From NCBI GenBank assembly GCA_963760795.1, contig CAVXEP010000002.1, forward strand, positions 1 through 64,000: a stretch of 64,000 nt of DNA. Direction: 5' to 3'. The translations under genes and the position numbers were made by a program. Below the pieces are notes generated by a model. The model was not told where the DNA came from. It saw only the letters and a list, made by a program, of their open reading frames with translations, and did no database searches. The DNA is from an uncultured delta proteobacterium. Its GTDB lineage: Bacteria > Desulfobacterota > Binatia > UBA9968. Of this stretch, positions 4,120 to 13,443 are shown one piece after another. How positions within the stretch are numbered: position 1 is the stretch's first letter; the number at the start of each line of letters is the position of its first letter.

Positions 4120-4376
4120 TTACGTTTCGCGTGCTGCCTGTGGCGTGTTCCGGAAGCTGATGGCCATCCGGTTGTAGGCATTCATCAGGCTGATCGCGAT
4201 CGTGAGATCGACCAGTTCCTTTTCCTTGAAGACGGCGCGCGCGGCCTGGAACGCCTCATCTGGCACGCCGGTCTCCGACACCCGGGTCACGAGTTTTCGG
4301 CCCAGGCAAGCGCGGCACGCTCACGCTCGCTGAAGAGATGGCCACCTTCCGCCCAGGCTTGCACCAGTGCGAGCTC
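4120..4376 (-). pseudogene. 3' fragment of a carboxymuconolactone decarboxylase/AhpD-family gene, cut at the junction
   Basis: Manual translation: LALVQAWAEGGHLFSERERAALAWAE..VTRVSETGVPDEAFQAARAVFKEKELVDLTIAISLMNAYNRMAISFR. The 5' half is missing. Confidence 0.75.
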
Positions 4377-5421
4377 CCGCCGAGCCGTTCCAATTGGACA
4401 TTACCGTTACTGGAGACCTGGCGTCCATAAATGAGACCTTCAAGACTCCTAAGAAGCTGTCGCGCAACACGCGCTTTCCAAACCCTTTTGCGCGGCAAAT
4501 GGAATTCTTTTCGACCAACGAATTCATAGGAACTATTAGCAAGAGTTGCGGAATCAATATAACGAGGAATTTCGCGTTTATTTCGAGAGCAGAGGTATAG
4601 GCGCTCATCAAGATCAAGGTGGTCGCGAATATAGTACTCGGCAAATTCCTTAATAACGGTAACACTCCTCGCAAGCCGTAGACGTTCCGACGATTTATCA
4701 ACGTCTAAGTTCTTTTTCCCTGGACTTCGGCGGATATGGGCGATCGCATGACGACAATCGTCAGAAAGGTACTTTCCTAGCGTCCGGTTGGCTAAGGGCA
4801 GCTTGCTCATCGTTTCCGGATCAAGTGCCAGCTGAGACCTTTGCTTCCGGTATGTCCGGTCCACGAACCCAATCGGATCTGTACCATCCACCTCAATAAC
4901 CTGCCAGAAAAAAAGAAAAGACAAGTAGTCATTGTTTGATGCGTGGGCTTCACGAAAAAGCGCAAGAGCTAACCGCTGGGTCTCATTCTTTATAGGGGGA
5001 ATTGTTACAAGGTCGTAGCCTCCTGCAATGCCTTCAAATGCGATCTTATGAAATGTAAAAACAACGGGCCTACAAGTTTTCAAAGAAGCAATCCGAAACC
5101 CTGTCCCGCCCGAGTTCCAAAGAGCTACCTTTGCATGATTTTCCCACGCGAGGGCGCTAGAAATTCTGCGGCAACAGAAAATGCATGATCTTGAGCACGC
5201 TCGTCGTTCATAGGAGTGATAGTTAAAAGCTGGTCGGCCCATTTTCGCGGGTTGTTCTGCACCAGTTTGAACTGGATTCCACCGTATTCGAAGCAACAGT
5301 AGTTTCGTACTAACCGGCGTGTATTATCGAAGGCGATGTGCATTAAGTAGTTAAGCGTTGGTGCGACATTTTGAGCTGAGATTATTGACGTCGGTGTTTC
5401 ACGGTATCTGTTCTGAACCAT
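4376..5421 (-). CDS. MauJ-like/ApeA-like HEPN-domain protein, frameshifted near 5160; 3' end runs into the junction
   Basis: ORFs 5125..5421 and 4256..5296 join at ..SVAAEFL/SALAWE. Motifs LALALFREA..SNN.YLSFLFFWQVIEV and Rx4H (CRHAIAH). The DNA is AT-richer than its flanks. Confidence 0.65.
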
Positions 5422-5472: not shown

Positions 5473-5700
5473 CTATTTAGCCAGTTCTCGGGCCAGCCTC
5501 TCTTCCGTTTGTTTATTCCGATGTCCCTGGTACCAACCGTACAACCGGCTAATCATCGACGCGTCCCGATGCAGCCGCCGCCCCAACTCCTTGGTCGTTA
5601 TCCCGCTCCACTCCCGCGCCAGATAAACCAGCTGCGCTCTGGCCGCCACCCACTGCCGCTGCCGTCCCGCCTGCAGCAACGCTGGCTCGTCAACTATTCT
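5473..5700 (-). pseudogene. C-terminal DnaA_C-like HTH remnant, probably from an IS200/IS605- or RAYT-type transposase
   Basis: GRQRQWVAARAQLVYLAREWSGITTKELGRRLHRDASMISR; no HUH catalytic domain upstream. Confidence 0.55.
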
Positions 5701-6098
5701 TAACTGGTAATGCGCTTCTTCACGCGGCTGTACAAGATTTCAACACACTGCGCAGGTGTCTCCTCTTTAGCAGATTCAATAGCGTTGCGAGCGATACTCT
5801 CAGGGGTGAAATCGGGATCGAGATATTTATCAACCACTTGCCGCGGTGCAGTTTTTAGGTCGATTTCTAGTTTGTTTTTATGCGACTGGTCCAAGTCCGA
5901 ACTGCGAATATTGAGAAGTGCCAAGCTCCGCGCAAATTCCAGTCGCGATTCTTCTGACCATGCAGCGCTTTCCCATTCCAACGTTCGGGTAGCTATGGCA
6001 CAGGGATGGGGAGAGCCAAAATAGAACCAAGTGAAACCGAAATACACCGTTGCAATGGATACAATCGCCAGAGCGGTAAATTTTGAAAATCTGTTCAT
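5700..6098 (-). CDS. Hypothetical protein with an N-terminal membrane anchor or signal
   Basis: 132-aa ORF, hydrophobic N-terminus, two Cys, AT-richer codons. Confidence 0.55.
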   Translation of the reverse strand: MNRFSKFTALAIVSIATVYFGFTWFYFGSPHPCAIATRTLEWESAAWSEESRLEFARSLALLNIRSSDLDQSHKNKLEIDLKTAPRQVVDKYLDPDFTPESIARNAIESAKEETPAQCVEILYSRVKKRITS

Positions 6099-6177
6099 AG
6101 CTCTCGCGACTTTTCCGCGGCTTTACATTCGCAAATTCGAGATTCGGGCTAGGTCTTAGGCAAGTCTGACAAGGCCG

Positions 6178-6606
6178 CGGTTCCGGTCATCTGTCTCCTG
6201 CCTCCTCAGCCGATGGAGCGGCGGCCGATGGCCCTTCACGCACGGCGTAGGTTACCACGGGCTCGGCGATCCCTTTTACGAATTCGGCGGGCATGGGCAT
6301 GAGCACGAAGCGCGCGTCGAGCTCGGCGCTTAGCGCCTCGGTCACGAGGATGTCCGCCTGATGGATGCGCGTGAGCGTCTGCACGCGCGCGGCCACGTTC
6401 ACGGTGCGTCCGACAAAGTCATACTCCATCCGCTCGCGCGAGCCCACCAGGCCGACAAGCCCCAAACCGCGGTCGATGCCGATTCCCAGAGCAAGCAACG
6501 GCAACCCCTCCCGCCCGAGCTCGACATTGTATTCGCGGATGGCCGCGCGCATCGCGAGGGCCGCGCGCACGGCATCGTTGCACTGCCACGGATTGGGTTG
6601 CAGCGC
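6178..6606 (-). repeat. 5'-truncated copy 1 of the cyclase 3' end
   Basis: Aligns by eye to 8872-9291 with 5 substitutions; shares the post-stop flank GCGGTTCCGG (+ strand) with copy 2. Confidence 0.95.
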
Positions 6607-6729
6607 CCGAGCTCCGGCTACCTGCGCTTCGGCTCCGCTATCGAAGGGTTCAAGTCATTAAAACACCGAGCGATTGAAACGACTAGAACCGTTTCGTTGA
6701 TTGTTCGTTTGTGCAAATCCAAGGTATCG

Positions 6730-7059
6730 CTATGCGGCCCGCGGCGTCGTGATGATCTGTGATAGCTCGCGCTCCGTTGCTCCCAGAGAGATAAGCGAGC
6801 GAATCAGCAAATCTAAAGAAACCGATGGATCCCCGGCCTCCATTTTGGCGACGCGCGACTGGCTAGACTGAAGTTTCGCGGCGAGATCCACTTGTGACAA
6901 GCCTCTTTGCTGTCGTCGTTGCCTCAAACCTGCGGCAAATTTTATCTTCAGTTCGATATACGCAGACTCCTCGCTAGAAAGACCCAGGAAATCCTTGACG
7001 GTCCCCACCTTCCAACCCCTCGCGCGCAGCCGTTCTTGTCTTTGTTTACGCATCTTCAT
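6730..7059 (-). CDS. XRE/HTH antitoxin (HigA-like)
   Basis: GWKVGTVKDFLGLS...RQQRGLSQVDLAAKLQSSQSRVAKMEAG..SVSLDLL; overlaps the end of the toxin gene. Confidence 0.88.
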   Translation of the reverse strand: MKMRKQRQERLRARGWKVGTVKDFLGLSSEESAYIELKIKFAAGLRQRRQQRGLSQVDLAAKLQSSQSRVAKMEAGDPSVSLDLLIRSLISLGATERELSQIITTPRAA

Positions 7060-7378
7060 AATCCTTTAAGCGTCTTTTACATGCGTTAATAACCGCTTTG
7101 GGCGTCGCTCGGCTCTTCTTGCTGAAGACTTCCAGAATGACGATCGCATCCGCATCGAGCCGATAGATGATTCGCCAAGTGGCGCTCTCATCGTTGATCC
7201 TCAATTCGTGGCAGCGGGTCCCAATCGCGGGCATCGGTCGGGAATGAGGCATTCCCAGCGTTTCGCCCTGTTGCAGCTTCCGAAGCAAATAGCCCGCTTC
7301 CAATCTGGCCGGCTGGGAAAATGGCGGAGTCTTAACCTCTCCTTCCAGCCAGACCAGCGGTTTATCGGCCGATGCCAT
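7046..7378 (-). CDS. RelE/ParE-superfamily toxin (HigB/Gp49-like)
   Basis: KPLVWL.GEVKTPPFS..ARLEAGYLLRKLQQG...PHSRPMPAIG.RCHELRI...WRIIYR...IVILEVFSKK; toxin-before-antitoxin order. Confidence 0.9.
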   Translation of the reverse strand: MASADKPLVWLEGEVKTPPFSQPARLEAGYLLRKLQQGETLGMPHSRPMPAIGTRCHELRINDESATWRIIYRLDADAIVILEVFSKKSRATPKAVINACKRRLKDYEDA

Positions 7379-7385
7379 CAAACAC

Positions 7386-7414
7386 ACTGTATGTCAGATA
7401 TGACATTTCGTCAA
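7386..7414 (-). promoter_or_regulatory. Sigma70-like promoter with an overlapping palindromic operator for the TA operon
   Basis: Minus strand TTGACG-17 bp-TACAGT, 7 nt before the ATG; palindrome ATGTCA-N4-TGACAT at 7391-7406. Confidence 0.7.
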
Positions 7415-7417
7415 TCG

Positions 7418-7741
7418 GCGGTTCCGGTCATCTGTCTCCTGCCTCCTCAGCCGACGGAGCGGCGGCCGATGGCCCTTCACGCACGGCGTAGGTTACCACG
7501 GGCTCGGCGATCCCTTTTACGAATTCGGCGGGCATGGGCATGAGCACGAAGCGCGCGTCGAGCTCGGCGCTTAGCGCCTCGGTCACGAGGATGTCCGCCT
7601 GATGGATGCGCGTGAGCGTCTGCACGCGCGCGGCCAGGTTCACGGTGCGTCCGACGAAGTCATACTCCATCCGCTCGCGCGAGCCCACCAGGCCGACAAG
7701 CCCCAAACCGCGGTCAATGCCGATCCCCAAGCAAGCAACGG
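7418..7741 (-). repeat. 5'-truncated copy 2 of the cyclase 3' end
   Basis: Aligns by eye to 8872-9186 with about 6 substitutions and a 1-nt deletion. Confidence 0.95.
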
Positions 7742-7854
7742 ATCTAAAAGATCATCTTTTTTTCCGGTATGAAAGGTGAAATAAGCTAAATCAAATAGAG
7801 AAAAGCTGCTTCTAACTGGTCCGTATCGACACGACCAGGGAAAGGACGAGAAAC

Positions 7855-8649
7855 ATGCTGGAGCTTTATCACAATGATATGTCGACATGTGCCCAAAAAG
7901 TCCGCCTTACGCTCGCGGAAAAAGGGCTTGCGTGGGAGGGTCGCCACCTTGATCTCAGGGCAGGCGATCAGCAGAAACCCGAGTACTTAAAGCTCAATCC
8001 CAGGGGTGTCGTGCCCACCATCGTCGACAACGGGAAAGTCGTGCGGGAATCCACGGTGATTATGGAATACCTCGACGATGAGTACCCGAAGCCGTCTCTC
8101 CGTCCATCGAATTCCCATGCACGAGCGCAGATGCGTTTATGGACCAAACGGCTCGACGAGGGCCATCATGATATCGCAACTGCCACGCTCAGCATGGGGA
8201 TCGCCTTTCGTTTCCAATATCTCGAGAAGGGGCAGGAGGCGTACGACGCGCTGATAAACAGAATACCGGATCCTCTCAGACGCGAGCGGCGACGCGACGT
8301 GATTTATAACGGCGTAGAAGCCCGAGAATTCACAACCGCCGTGCGCATGTGGGAAGCGCTGCTTACGGACATGGAAAAATCACTCGACGGCACTCGGTGG
8401 CTGGCGGATGACACTTATTCGCTCGCGGACACGGCTTATACACCCTACCTCACTCGACTCGATCATCTGAACCTCCTCGACTGGATGGCAAAACGCCCGC
8501 GACTCGCGAACTGGTACGAACGAATACGCGCTCGGCCGAGTTATGAGAGCGCAATCAAACAATGGGAAAACCGCGCCTATATCGATCTTATGCGCACAAA
8601 GGGCGGCGAAGTCTGGCACAGAATCAAACGAATGATCGACGAGCTATAA
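7855..8649 (+). CDS. Glutathione S-transferase family protein
   Basis: MLELYHNDMSTCAQKVR..LAEK, YLKLNPRGVVPT, ESTVIMEYLD, YSLAD. Confidence 0.92.
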   Translation: MLELYHNDMSTCAQKVRLTLAEKGLAWEGRHLDLRAGDQQKPEYLKLNPRGVVPTIVDNGKVVRESTVIMEYLDDEYPKPSLRPSNSHARAQMRLWTKRLDEGHHDIATATLSMGIAFRFQYLEKGQEAYDALINRIPDPLRRERRRDVIYNGVEAREFTTAVRMWEALLTDMEKSLDGTRWLADDTYSLADTAYTPYLTRLDHLNLLDWMAKRPRLANWYERIRARPSYESAIKQWENRAYIDLMRTKGGEVWHRIKRMIDEL

Positions 8650-8871
8650 AAATCCAGCGCACGGGGACCGGTAAAACATCTCTTCCAAATCTTTCAAAGG
8701 TTCAAATAGGGGAACACGTTCCAGAAGTTCGAATCGTTAATTGACCCGGTCGGTTCCAGACGTTTCAATGCTACGGTGTCAGGCTTCATACGCGTTATTG
8801 TTATTGTAGTTGTCTATTTTCTCTTTTCCGGTCGCGATCTGCAGTGTCCCGGCGGCGCTTCCCGTCGGCCG

Positions 8872-9702
8872 TCATCTGTCTCCTGCCTCCTCAGCCGATG
8901 GAGCGGCGGCCGATGGCCCTTCACGCACGGCGTAGGTTAGCACGGGCTCGGCGATCCCTTTTACGAATTCGGCGGGCATGGGCATGAGCACGAAGCGCGC
9001 GTCGAGCTCGGCGCGTAGCGCCTCGGTCACGAGGATGTCCGCCTGATGGATGCGCGTGAGCGTCTGCACGCGCGCGGCCACGTTCACGGTGCGTCCGACG
9101 AAGTCATACTCCATCCGCTCGCGCGAGCCCACCAGGCCGACAAGCCCCAAACCGCGGTCGATGCCGATTCCCAGAGCAAGCAACGGCAGCCCCTCCCGCC
9201 CGAGCTCGACATTGTATTCGCGGATGGCCGCGCGCATCGCGAGGGCCGCGCGCACGGCATCGTTGCACTGCCACGGATTCGGTTGCAGCGCGCCGAAATA
9301 GGCGACGATGCCGTCGCCCAGGAAGTGGGCGACATGGCCGCGGTGCTCGTGGATGGCATCGCTCATGCGCTGGAAGTAGCCGTTGAGCACACGCGCCAGG
9401 ACGGCCGGCTCGAGCCGGTCGCTCATCGCGGTGGAACCGACGAGATCGGCGAACAGAACGGTCACCACTTTGCGCTCGGGAGCCGCCGCCTCGATCGCCG
9501 ACTGCACGCCGTCGGCGATGAGGTGCTGCAGCACACCGGCTGGAACAAGCGCGAGCAGGATTGCTGGAGATGCTGGAGGTCGGTGGCGATCGCTTCGAGC
9601 TGGGCCTTCAGCGTCTGGTTCTGCCGCCATTGGCGATAGATTGCGGCGGCGAGTCCCGCCAGGAGCACCAGCAGAGCAACTACGACGACAGGGTCCGGTC
9701 AT
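8872..9702 (-). CDS. Class III adenylate/guanylate cyclase with N-terminal TM helix and coiled coil (indels in the 5' part)
   Basis: VTVLFADLVGST, HFLGDG, GIGI.RG, EYDFVGRTVNVAARVQ, VKG. The alternative frame 9462..9668 supplies LLAGLAAAIYRQWRQNQTLKAQLEAI. Confidence 0.9.
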   Translation of the reverse strand: MTGPCRRSCSAGAPGGTRRRNLSPMAAEPDAEGPARSDRHRPPASPAILLALVPAGVLQHLIADGVQSAIEAAAPERKVVTVLFADLVGSTAMSDRLEPAVLARVLNGYFQRMSDAIHEHRGHVAHFLGDGIVAYFGALQPNPWQCNDAVRAALAMRAAIREYNVELGREGLPLLALGIGIDRGLGLVGLVGSRERMEYDFVGRTVNVAARVQTLTRIHQADILVTEALRAELDARFVLMPMPAEFVKGIAEPVLTYAVREGPSAAAPSAEEAGDR

Positions 9703-10794
9703 GTATTATGGTCCAGCACCGTCGCGCCCATCCGGCACAGCCCATTGGCCAGCGACGCCACACCGATGGCCTCGAGGAGCTGCGGGCCCGAGAGGCGGTC
9801 GCGCAGCATACGGGCGCGGCGCTGTAGCGGCGCGGGCTCGAACCAGATCGTTTCACGAGCGAACGGCACGAGCAGCCGCTCGATGTCGTCGAGCTCGGGC
9901 GCGTCGAGATGAGTCAGGACCTGGGCGAGCGTCGATTCCTTCAATCCCTCTCTCCGGAGAGTTTCACTCACCTCCGGCGCGCAGACCTCGCACCCGAGCC
10001 CGCGCGCGATGACGGCGATCATCAGAAGTTTACAGCGTCGCGTGAGATGGGGAGAGGCCCACATCTCAGCGAGCGTTCGCGCCAATATCGCGCCGATCGG
10101 AGAACCCGCGTAGGTTTCCACGAGCCGGCCGTAGGCATAGGGCGGCACGGGGTCGAGCACGGTGGGCTGCCCGCGATAACGATATCTTTTAACGATCAGA
10201 CCGAGCAAGGGCCGGAGCAGCCGTACGTAAAGGTGATCGGGCATGCTCTCGATCGGATACGCAGGGATCGCGGGGATCGTATGGGCGCGGTTGTGGAAAT
10301 CCGTCAATGCCGCCGTGAACGCGATTTCTTTCATCTCTTCGAGCCCCAAGCCCGAACGACGTAGAGTCTCACGGGCAGCCCGCGCTCCTGCGGGACCCGA
10401 GCGCGACTGGCTTCGCCCGAAGGCGACAGCCGCCATGGTCCGCGGCGGCAGATCGGCCCGCCTCAGGTCCTGTTCCATGCGCTGGATACGCGCCCAGGAC
10501 ATTCCCTGAGCCCACAGCAGTCCCCGGACAGCGGCATAGCAGAAACGGCATGAGTTCTCCTGGCTGACGACCAGCACGACAAGATCCGCTACGGTCCTGA
10601 TCGAGGTGCATGAGCAGCCCGTACTCGGGATGCATATCGATCACGGCTCGCGCCATCCAGGGGACCGGCGCGAAGTAGGCGATCATCGGGTGGGGAATCC
10701 CTTGCCTTCGCCGCGCGTAGGACTGTAACGCCGGGTCTGGAAAGGGCTCGACCAGGGGCGACTCCCATTCAACCTGTTGCAGGACACCGTTCAT
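9699..10794 (-). CDS. Tandem AhpD/CMD-like protein with two CxxC motifs, frameshift near 10590
   Basis: VVSQENSCRFCY and IARGLGCEVC; stop codon overlaps the cyclase ATG (ATGA). Confidence 0.75.
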
Positions 10795-10836
10795 GATCTG
10801 ACTCGAACGCGCTGGCTGAGTGATCGGAGGCCGCCG

Positions 10837-11901
10837 CTATTGACGTGACGGCAGCGGCTCGACCCCCGACATCTTTTTCAACATATCGATGACCTCGGGA
10901 TCGCGGGGCATCTCGTGGATAATCTTGGTCAACTCTTCCGGCATCAACGGCGACGCGTCGTCGGTGATGACTTTTTTGAACTCGGCGCGAAATTCCGGGT
11001 CCTTAAAGGCTTTGCGCATTCCTTCCTGCAATATCTCGACTCGATCTTTAGGTGTGCCCGGCGGCAGGACAAACGGCATGGACGCGGTCCTGAAACTGCG
11101 CCACATCGACAGGAGCTTTCGTTCCCTATCGGTTTTTGCGAAGGTCTCGATCTCCGGAAGTTGAGCAAGCCTCGGATGGGACGGCTTATCGTTTTTCGGC
11201 ACCGCCAAGATGGCATGAAAATCCATGATACCCTTGTCGATCCAGTCGCGATTGCGGGTCAGCACTGAAGTCACGTTGTTCGATCGCGAATCGATTTCTC
11301 CGCTGTTGAGCGCCACATCGGCTTCCAGCGCGGAATAGCCCGTGACGAATTTCGGCGCTTTCAAATCGAGAAAGTAGGCAAACAACCGCGCCGAGATATA
11401 AGCCGCCCCGCCCACCTCCTGGGCGCCGAGCTTGACCCCGCTCGCCGCTCGGAATTTTTCCAGACTGTTGAGGCCAAGCACGCTGCGTGTGTAGATCACA
11501 TTGTGGTTCTCGCTGATCGGGGTGCCGAGAACGATGAATTTGTCGATATCGTACATCACGCCGGTCTCGCGCATGACCTGCAAGCCGACGATCGAACTGC
11601 TGAGCGCTCCGATCGTGAGACCGTCGGGCTTGGCGTTTTGAAATACGTAATTGGCCGCCTTGCGGCCGCCGCCGCCTTCCATAATTTCTACAAAAATAGT
11701 CGGATTCCCCGGAATATATTTGCTTAGGTATTTTATAACGGTTTTAAGCCGCAAGCTGACCACGCCGCCCGGATCGTTGTTGATAATCTTCAGCGTCTTG
11801 CCTTGATAAAAAACCGCTTGGGAAAAAGCCGGAACCGGAGAAACTCCCGTCGACAAAACGAGAGCGGCAACTATCATTAGGAGCGGATATTTTTTTCTCA
11901 T
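10837..11901 (-). CDS. Bug/TctC-like tripartite tricarboxylate transporter substrate-binding protein
   Basis: Signal peptide; FYQGKT, YIPGNPTI, GGGGRKAANY, KPDGLT, PPGTPKDRV. Confidence 0.88.
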   Translation of the reverse strand: MRKKYPLLMIVAALVLSTGVSPVPAFSQAVFYQGKTLKIINNDPGGVVSLRLKTVIKYLSKYIPGNPTIFVEIMEGGGGRKAANYVFQNAKPDGLTIGALSSSIVGLQVMRETGVMYDIDKFIVLGTPISENHNVIYTRSVLGLNSLEKFRAASGVKLGAQEVGGAAYISARLFAYFLDLKAPKFVTGYSALEADVALNSGEIDSRSNNVTSVLTRNRDWIDKGIMDFHAILAVPKNDKPSHPRLAQLPEIETFAKTDRERKLLSMWRSFRTASMPFVLPPGTPKDRVEILQEGMRKAFKDPEFRAEFKKVITDDASPLMPEELTKIIHEMPRDPEVIDMLKKMSGVEPLPSRQ

Positions 11902-12072
11902 GAGCCTCTCCTCAACTCCAAGCCATATAGACGCGCACGTGGGAACGGGGTCAAGCGCTTATTTTTGACATCGCCCCGACGGGGAAGCAGTTTTTTATTC
12001 AGCTTCACAACTTCTTGCTCCGCGCCGTCGCGTAGAGCGCGCAGCTTGAACCGTGATATTTTTGCTACGTAT

Positions 12073-12285
12073 CTAACGCGCTTTCTCCAACTCGGCCAAA
12101 CGAGTCTTCGCCTGATTCGCGTAAGGCGAGTCGGGATATTCTTCTACGATCTGCCGATAAAGTTTCGTCGCGTGCGGCCTATTGTTCTGCTTTTCTTCCA
12201 ACTGCGCGGTATCGTATAAATCCTTCGCTTTATCGCCGCAGCCCACGAGCAGCAGGAGCAGGCAGACGGCCAGAAATCTTCGCAT
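12073..12285 (-). CDS. Small lipoprotein with a single TPR-like repeat
   Basis: Lipobox LLVGC; ATKLYRQIVEEYPDSPYANQA. Confidence 0.75.
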   Translation of the reverse strand: MRRFLAVCLLLLLVGCGDKAKDLYDTAQLEEKQNNRPHATKLYRQIVEEYPDSPYANQAKTRLAELEKAR

Positions 12286-12395
12286 GGGCATTCTCCTAAA
12301 TTTATTATTGGTCCCAGCTATCCTAATAGATCTGAACGGCGTGCTTGTTCAATCGTCAGCTCGCGCGACAGACAAGAGATCCTGGTTCTTTTGTT

Positions 12396-13443
12396 TCACC
12401 GAGACGGCAACGGATCGGCGCCGGACAGCTTTTTAAAAAGCTCGACCACGTCGCGGTCGCGCGGCAGTTCGCGGATCGCTTTGTCCTGCTCTTCCGGTAG
12501 TAACGGCGATGCGTCGAAGCCGGAAAGCTTCTTGAACTCACGATGAAAGTCCGGATCTCGAAGCGCTTTGCGAAAAGCCTCCTGGAGGATCTGCACCTGC
12601 GGCTTGGGCGTGCCCGGCGCGAGCACATAGGGTGTGCCGACGAGCCTGAAAGCTCGATACATCGTCAATAGTTTGCGCTCCGCCTCGGACTTGGCGAAAC
12701 TTTCAATTTCAGGCAAGCGCGCAAAGCCATCCGGCCGGTTTCCTCTGGGGATTTCGACAATCGCATGGAGATCCAACAAGCCCTTTTTCATCTCTTCGGC
12801 ATTGCGCTGGCCGAGGGTTTCAAGCGCATTCGCTCTGCCGTCCAACTCGCGGCGCTCGAGCGCAATATCGATTTCCGGGCCGCCGTAGCCGGTGACGAAT
12901 CGCGGGTCTTTGAGACCCAGCAAATACGCAAACAGCCGTCCGGTGATATAGATGTCATGCCCGACCTCCTGGGCGCCGATGCGCACGCCGCTTGCGGCGC
13001 GCAATTTTTCCAAGCTGCCGAGGCCGGCCTCTTTGCGCGTGAGAAATACGTAATGGAAGACGCTCACGGGCGAGCCCAAGTAAGTCAGCTTGTCGATGTC
13101 GTACTGCACGCCGACGGTATCGAGGATCGCATTGGTCACCAGGGAAGACGACAGTGCCGCCGATGGTTAATCCGTCCGGCTTGGCGACGCGATAAATGTG
13201 ATTCGCCGCCTTGCGTCCGCCGCCGCCCGGCATGTAATCGGAGACGATCGTTGGATTGCCGGGAATATATTTCTGCAGAAATGGGAACAAAGCCCGGCGG
13301 CGCAGATCGCCGGTGCCGCCGGCGTCAACGATCTGCACGACGGTTATGGTTTTGCCTTTGTAAAAATCCGCCTGGGCGTATGCATGCGCGACCGGCATGC
13401 AGACCGATAAAACCAAGGTAACTGCGAGAAAAAGCATTCTCAT
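12396..13443 (-). CDS. Bug/TctC-like substrate-binding protein, frameshift near 13140
   Basis: DFYKGKTI, YIPGNPTI, MPGGGGRKAAN, KPDGLT, APGTPK. Confidence 0.85.

Follow-up and report, generated by a model that had tools for sequence, protein, structure and literature searches.

Displaced copies of a cyclase gene end separate small gene cassettes in a soil bacterium of the Binatia

How do truncated copies of one gene end come to separate small, unrelated genes? This question is raised by an array near the start of a 64,000-nucleotide stretch of contig CAVXEP010000002.1 (C2, 213 kb), hereafter the window, from an uncultured soil bacterium whose assembly comprises 6.58 Mb in 35 contigs. On the minus strand, an AhpD/CMD-family gene and a class III adenylate/guanylate cyclase gene are followed by an inverted glutathione S-transferase (GST) gene, a 5'-truncated cyclase tail (copy 2), a HigBA toxin-antitoxin pair, another tail (copy 3), a hypothetical gene, a helix-turn-helix (HTH) remnant and a MauJ/HEPN-like gene (Table 1). 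A sequence-only reading had described this order, and both the sequence and Pfam confirm it. That reading had also called the array an undescribed capture hotspot. Judged against the criteria of Furuta, Abe and Kobayashi 2010 (PMC2853133), however, the scar belongs to the insertions with long target duplication, and it has an experimental precedent (PMC3240628). Among the possible routes, we consider it reasonably probable that a trimmed donor fragment was circularised by end-joining and integrated by RecA.

Alternative routes predict different alleles. Duplication in place would leave gene and copy equally resident, and linear displacement resembling homology-facilitated illegitimate recombination (HFIR) would leave the copy wholly resident. 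A circle integrated by one crossover would leave a copy with a foreign start and a resident end, and a gene with the reverse pattern. The most informative alleles come from three loci of one related species, L168, L169 and L171, which are 99.0-99.5% identical upstream (L-numbers denote loci or contigs of relatives, and G-numbers genomes of the genus, G000 being that of the window). L168 has the L171 arrangement (99.35% identity over 1392 bp) with two cassettes added beside the gene, a series that fits stepwise addition next to the gene. The full gene of L168 shows zero differences from L169 over about 155 nt and is then followed by a foreign flank. The first tail of L168 differs from L169 by 13 substitutions and two gaps in about 118-120 nt (P 3e-8 against 1.5% drift); beyond this divergent start, it matches the L169 end and flank (98.5% over 845 bp). 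Such a reciprocal mosaic is predicted for one crossover with a circle of tail and cargo. The second tail of L168 corresponds to the L171 gene end, with 2/80 mismatches versus 9-15 in comparisons with 14 other full genes. A T allele close to the beginning of the second tail was first taken as donor-derived; both gene and copy carry it, and it is uninformative. Joints for which donor-type alleles are available share 1, 1 and about 4 bases.

The cyclase tail is a local hotspot in the genus. Tails lie next to different cargo in five congeneric genomes and two soil contigs, and strong matches to the tail occur in 6 of 30 further genomes of the genus. We examined 64 of 105 further loci, dropping 7 with less than 1 kb downstream, and scored a host as genus-like if protein identity was at least 92% or downstream GC was up to 0.60. 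Tail copies are present at 4 of the 18 genus-like loci (three copies in L168, and copies in L171, L241, which is G019, and L261, which is G003) and at none of 39 loci of other hosts (Fisher P 0.008, overstated since kin are non-independent). Orphan tails, with no full gene beside them, were found in G017 (four), G018 (one) and G041 (one), the coordinates of the set being L026 9745-11989, L025 10363-10537, L027 10094-10260 and L041 271-405. Only the cyclase gene, with no tail copy, is found in G045. Twelve different tail starts are spread over about 360 bp (between about 9296 and 8935 of the window), and inspection by eye revealed no joint motif across them; the earlier proposal of homology anchoring with variable crossover points agrees with this spread. 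Direct repeats in relatives measure 72-317 bp. Two tails of different species, in G019 and G017, stop at the same base (window 8943; L024 6806, L026 10552), both being followed by RGGGAA, and one of the two adjoins an IS110 element broken by another insertion sequence (IS). The AhpD-cyclase pair occurs in three different upstream contexts in the genus (L040 7904-9855; L023 10491-12416), and in G045 it stands in inverted orientation within a set of genes found about 25 kb downstream in G003 and G019. Across species the pair has 91-96% identity, and the xanthine dehydrogenase (XDH) ends are 86-90% identical in 3/4 shared genomes; the unusual conservation of the cyclase tail may explain why it is a good anchor.

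Downstream content varies among relatives, as expected if cassettes were captured serially, and both the stepwise L168/L171 alleles and the variety of cargo bear out the accretion of one- or two-gene cassettes that had been proposed. The view of this cargo as stress and defence genes holds in part. Toxin-antitoxin modules make up 4 of 8 distinct tail-bounded cassettes (one labelled by reading alone), and ordinary enzymes and transporters are carried as well. For instance, three G017 tails separate a methyltransferase gene and msrA, while G003 and G019 share a tail beginning at 9121 and a cassette with a lipoprotein gene and what is presumably a cupredoxin-like gene. GST and methyltransferase cargo is inverted relative to the cyclase. 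Alternative alleles place the individual cargoes directly behind a full cyclase gene: higBA, without GST, in L161 and L175 (90-91%), a PIN-toxin module in L169, and a methyltransferase gene in G018 and L165. GST is also downstream of the cyclase in L165. Pre-insertion alleles are provided by L166 for G003 (outer flank) and by L169 and L171 for L168. For the higBA cassette of the window, no exact empty site extends past 31 bp of flank, and the donor allele for the joint of the G003/G019 cassette was not found among 31 genomes. About 1-4 kb behind the G003 array (L021 11381-14341), a frameshifted TIR gene (Pfam TIR_2) lies beside an Argonaute-like gene, so labelled from reading of the sequence alone, with no Pfam or NCBIfam match.

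The homologous stretches of the window's copies, which bound inserts of about 1.1 and 0.8 kb, are 97.8% (copy 2, 7741-7427) and 98.6% (copy 3, 6610-6186) identical to the cyclase end, and no further tail copy exists elsewhere in the 6.58-Mb assembly. As had been noticed earlier, the copies have an identical stop, both carry A instead of C at 9015 and G instead of C at 8940 (the S/R and V/L changes), a 10-nt post-stop flank is common to them, and each has private changes. The common substitutions are ancestral states, present in the full genes of the closest relatives, and the cyclase alleles at both sites differ from the two copies and from the nearest relatives. Judged by these alleles, it is the end of the intact gene, not that of the copies, that was replaced, and the last ~150 nt of the cyclase gene and the flank behind it look donor-derived. 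The same flank (flank B) is found behind a cyclase tail in G041. With G019 and G003 as references for copy 3, the first 3 differing sites match in the full gene and the last 2 in the copy, so that 5/5 sites agree with a circle. Since the newest cassette lies nearest the gene in the L168 series, GST would be newer than higBA in the window, and flank A of copy 3 would be the oldest. The cyclase was left intact; hence the cargo sits behind the gene rather than inside it, and the notion of insertion into the gene was not upheld.

The scar is not special to this signalling gene, as had been supposed. We compared the genome with itself, using our own gene caller, for gene 3' ends recurring downstream beyond cargo. 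In G000, 21 pairs at 20 genes have 3'-end copies downstream, versus 4-5 mirror cases at gene starts. The anchors are unrelated and include an ABC ATPase, hydrolases, SelO, XDH and solute-binding proteins, among others; among 78 anchor, cargo and flanking proteins scanned, one is a transposase and none an integrase. Other species use the asparaginase and LigXa tails again, at other breakpoints. The tail of a LigXa-type Rieske gene is a second multi-copy anchor, with four displaced tails in G003 and two in G018 (G003:C4 4690-29266; G018:C10 22074-44144; G000:C35 1800-4914), and one G003 tail ends cargo shared with G000. Behind the XDH stop (L067-L096), nearly all of the 21 genomes with downstream sequence have a different neighbour, often a toxin-antitoxin pair, and G000 alone among them has a tail copy within 1.5 kb. 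No scar was called automatically in a 440-kb sample of G003, whose known cyclase copy was missed through a frameshift. Two outgroup genomes yielded 3 scars in 1.6 Mb, compared with ~3 per Mb in G000, and a higher frequency in the genus was not demonstrated (P 0.6, computed with 19 loci where a recount gives 20, and with a small control). Replication polarity was also rejected: 15 anchors with clear local GC skew divide into 7 leading and 8 lagging, against a baseline of 60% leading. The 3'-over-5' bias follows gene direction, not replication; our guess is that selection against expressed truncated gene starts lies behind it.

The route that we favour would begin in a relative with another gene directly behind the cyclase. 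Its DNA would be broken inside the tail and beyond the neighbour, and the ends of the fragment would be joined almost bluntly, giving a circle of tail fragment, flank and cargo; Ku and LigD are candidates for this step. ComEC, DprA, Ku and LigD are all present in the genome, ku and ligD being adjacent (G000:C29 252547-253769), and Ku was found in 5/7 genomes of the genus and 0/4 outgroup genomes searched. General recombination would then insert the non-replicating circle into the resident cyclase tail by one Campbell-type crossover. The gene would stay whole with a new end and the cargo next to it, and the remaining tail would be left downstream, 5'-truncated, with its old neighbour. Each round would add a cassette beside the gene and push older ones away. 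A cassette between two tails could loop out and be re-used as a circle, and toxin-antitoxin cargo would resist loss, which may explain its excess. To judge from the identities, the cyclase tail would be hot through its high interspecies conservation and a free downstream slot. A broader version of this scheme, in which the conserved, GC-rich tail is a landing pad shared across the genus, circles of tail and cargo, formed by end-joining or excised from arrays already present, circulate in the population, and RecA alone builds an integron-like, ordered, rearrangeable and recombinase-free array with toxin-antitoxin cargo kept by addiction, the same route explaining most integrase-free gene-tail scars in bacteria, is somewhat doubtful.

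Several observations weigh against circle integration. No circle was observed, and the clear mosaic comes from a single copy on a single short-read metagenome contig, possibly a chimeric one. The three tails of the window are only 1-2% apart and offer few informative sites; 3 of the 5 supporting sites of copy 3 could reflect decay of the copy, and copy 2 fits the prediction at 4/6 sites versus G019. At other anchors, asparaginase and SelO alleles lean toward the circle pattern, XDH alleles have no such trend, and TPP, with 12 differences in the first 117 nt and none in the last 65, fits half. The gene and copy of G003 share private mid-stretch alleles, and therefore gene conversion is needed. 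Both scar-bearing outgroup genomes appear to lack Ku, none having been found there; Ku is therefore not required. The near-universal ComEC and DprA do not prove competence, and transformation delivers single strands. Finally, in G018 a GST gene lies upstream of the cyclase gene, an arrangement that also fits duplication plus deletion.

Linear displacement, which was proposed for type VI secretion system (T6SS) and Rhs arrays (PMC5361080), is an unlikely alternative. A donor strand would pair with the cyclase gene, and its foreign end would be joined directly to the resident tail at a point further forward. At the cyclase, asparaginase and TPP loci, displaced tails do retain their former flank, the second tail of L168 equals the L171 gene end, one joint shares about 4 bases, and ComEC and DprA are present. 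However, a first tail that is foreign for ~118 nt beside a resident gene is the reverse of what linear displacement predicts. HFIR has, moreover, been described as producing deletions, mostly with 3-10-bp microhomology (PMC3240628), whereas 2/3 joints here share one base; joints with 0-1 shared bases also occur among the HFIR products of E. coli in that report, so blunt joints alone do not exclude HFIR. In-place tandem duplication, in which a block that ends with the cyclase is doubled and later deletions spare one neighbour gene and a tail, appears quite improbable. It would need one 5.4-kb deletion in a G018-like arrangement, in which GST (4 kb upstream of the cyclase) and DinB genes precede the AhpD-cyclase pair, to yield GST and a tail, and the copies of one genome resemble each other more closely than they do those of other species. 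Against this, the window's genome contains no close second copy of GST or higBA, and up to the joint the DNA upstream of GST is much closer to L165 and to the metagenomic runs X2 and X7 than to G018, with GST downstream in L165. Nor can a foreign tail with 8% divergence derive from the same chromosome.

A dedicated trans-acting element that captures tail and neighbour (an ISCR/IS91 rolling-circle element, an IS110 bridge recombinase or some other recombinase) seems very unlikely. The second 3'-CS copies made by ISCR elements resemble the layout of the array. The common end of two fragments at 8943, one of them beside an IS110, would suit such an element, as would the RAYT-like remnants and short repeats that are common near cassette edges. 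However, Pfam detected no integrase or transposase in the window's cargo, and no Y2 transposase was found in 11 genomes, with a control that was equally silent (0/14). The 20 unrelated anchors, the missing joint motif and the protein counts given above also argue against it. Tyrosine recombinases gave 13 matches in the genome and none on C2, a 213-kb contig that begins 6 kb away in an assembly that is 89% complete. The integron integrase profile TIGR02249 gave 8 matches, none above cut-off and none on C2, and no attC site emerged when both strands of 5601-9800 were scanned for a simple RYYYAAC...GTTRRRY pattern; the earlier judgement that neither a fixed-att integrase nor an integron is at work agrees with these results. 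RVT_1 was absent from the genome (control positive in 3/14). A phage or plasmid carrier was rejected, the viral contigs searched having no cyclase relative and the plasmids no tail match, and a tRNA or Rfam target was rejected for lack of a match.

The array is mostly not an assembly artefact. Short-read contigs of four runs, drawn from four studies, were compared with 5700-10800, and the results below refer to the 32 of 284 pieces listed. Because these contigs differ by one base near 9549 (cyclase) and near 10593-10596 (AhpD, in all four runs), the frameshifts of both genes in the assembly are probably long-read sequencing errors; the intact cyclase that had been described is present, albeit frameshifted as assembled. 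Independent contigs recover 3/4 insert borders: a 997-bp contig of run X1 bridges higBA and the copy 2 stop, a 290-bp contig of run X2 (6577-6868) spans the copy 3 start, and a 497-bp contig links GST and the cyclase end. Among the pieces listed, none bridges the joint between GST and copy 2 at 7741, and none spans two tail copies. In L165 and in contigs of runs X2 and X7, the match ends exactly at 7741 and other DNA follows; we read these sequences as donor-type alleles. The same departure at an unbridged base could be taken to mean that the joint is a two-strain chimera of the long-read assembly, the bin having 6% contamination and many indel errors. We hold this to be highly improbable, as the joint is non-homologous, copy 2 carries changes of its own, the other three borders were recovered in other studies, and the layout recurs in other assemblies, including the four-tail array of L168.

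Table 1. Coordinates of the array and adjoining features in the window
Feature	Position	Strand	Evidence and remarks
AhpD/CMD-family gene, first of the two-gene anchor operon	9699-10794	-	Pfam CMD; ~65% GC; frameshifted in assembly near 10593-10596
Class III adenylate/guanylate cyclase, anchor gene	8872-9702	-	Pfam PF00211 Guanylate_cyc, E 5e-21; assembly frameshift near 9549
Flank B, behind the present cyclase end	8800-8871	-	G041 match 93% up to 8800; contigs 8434-8916 and 8685-8886 in other runs
Short TTGAAC/TGGAAC-type intergenic repeat patch, between converging cyclase and GST ends	8680-8790	.	Direct sequence inspection
Glutathione S-transferase, cargo of the putatively newest cassette, inverted	7855-8649	+	Pfam GST_N/GST_C; own upstream region 7742-7854
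Non-homologous joint 1, between DNA upstream of GST and cyclase position 9186	7741-7742	.	One shared base
Displaced cyclase tail, copy 2 (316 bp)	7418-7741	-	Shares 10-bp flank with copy 3; lacks native start; carries one 1-bp deletion
HigBA-like toxin-antitoxin pair, cargo of the putatively older cassette	6730-7387	-	Pfam PF05973 (Gp49/RelE-type toxin), PF01381 (HTH antitoxin)
Non-homologous joint 2, between DNA behind higA and cyclase position about 9292-9296	6606-6611	.	Contig 6577-6868 of run X2 bridges
Displaced cyclase tail, copy 3 (426 bp), with putatively oldest flank A (31 bp)	6155-6610	-	Flank A follows full gene in G003, G019
Hypothetical membrane-anchored protein, earlier downstream neighbour	5700-6098	-	No Pfam match; contig 5948-6193 in run X1
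Short HTH remnant, outside repeat-bounded cassettes	5476-5679	-	Bac_DnaA_C E 1e-4, under cut-off; dispersed homologues in relatives
MauJ/HEPN-like low-GC gene, frameshifted, outside the tail array	4256-5421	-	Pfam MauJ E 5e-14

Features around the cassettes are listed in Table 1. The GST gene has homologues in G018 (88%) and L165 (97%). The TTGAAC/TGGAAC repeat patch has 9-nt length variants in run X6, and a similar patch occurs at the GST end in G018. The segment 5679-5476 had been called a transposase remnant. An HTH remnant is indeed present, probably the C-terminus of a RAYT-type transposase; the Bac_DnaA_C match behind this name is weak and lies below cut-off. The first 4300 positions of the window, with an oxidoreductase and an epoxide hydrolase gene, have 63-71% GC versus 58% for the contig and may be foreign DNA or a chimeric end. 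On the other side, 10837-13421 contains tandem Bug/TctC solute-binding genes of a large family, of which G019 retains one 130-bp 3' end.

Although the scar is known, its natural mechanism has so far been a hypothesis, and the present locus offers donor-type, pre-insertion and multi-insert alleles along with one clean mosaic. The resulting simple test applies to all scars of the kind: one asks whether the displaced copy begins with foreign alleles and ends with resident ones. Should this prove widely true, recombination of end-joined circles would be a common route of gene gain that has been overlooked by island and integron finders, because such finders look for integrases.

Insertion with long target duplication reportedly goes back to Nobusato et al. 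2000. The 2010 survey requires inserts of <20 kb, long, variable and genome-unique direct repeats, no mobile-element gene and empty-site alleles in relatives (PMC2853133). The window's array shares with these cases repeats that are >30 bp, variable (316 and 426 bp) and site-unique, inserts of <20 kb without integrase or transposase, and empty-site alleles (L161/L175, L166 and L169/L171). It differs in cargo, which consists here of GST and HigBA and in that screen of restriction-modification genes, which are not part of the scar, and in the serial use of one anchor, with arrays of up to four tails and mosaics that point to a circle. The survey also proposed a link to DNA breakage by restriction enzymes (PMC2853133). 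In E. coli, linear DNA with a lacZ end was trimmed, closed and integrated by a single crossover, giving duplications of 109-950 bp; the PCR product was obtained in 56/60 clones, 14 of which were sequenced, and the event was ten times more frequent than HFIR (PMC3240628). A gene end is duplicated by one crossover there as in our scheme. That assay, however, used laboratory conjugation with selection on a broken lacZ, whereas here the gene is whole and the event recurs naturally at one site. T6SS effector-immunity and Rhs arrays (PMC5361080) likewise have the newest module by the anchor and older ones displaced downstream, with no integrase. There, the toxic end of the anchor is exchanged and immunity genes build up, whereas the present array keeps its anchor unchanged and gathers whole unrelated genes. 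Islands that integrate into tRNA and tmRNA genes also restore their target and leave a displaced fragment at the far end (Islander, PMC4383910). Here no integrase was found, the crossover is not fixed, the anchor is protein-coding and the fragments measure 70-430 bp. A retro-copy would differ from this array, given the absence of RVT_1 and the inverted GST and methyltransferase cargo, and so does classical HFIR, as the product here is a duplication with the old flank kept and no deletion of resident DNA.

Integrons and ISCR complex integrons form ordered arrays of one- or two-gene cassettes, rich in toxin-antitoxin pairs, with a partial second copy of a conserved segment. The cyclase array resembles them in its order, its small cassettes with toxin-antitoxin pairs and its partial repeat copies. 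It differs in that no integron integrase, attC site or Y2 transposase was found, and in that cassettes have their own promoters and lie in either orientation. A limited literature search found no publication on such arrays in this genus. Set beside these systems, the scar is one already described, and the value of this locus lies in an unusually complete natural series of alleles, which favours circle integration.

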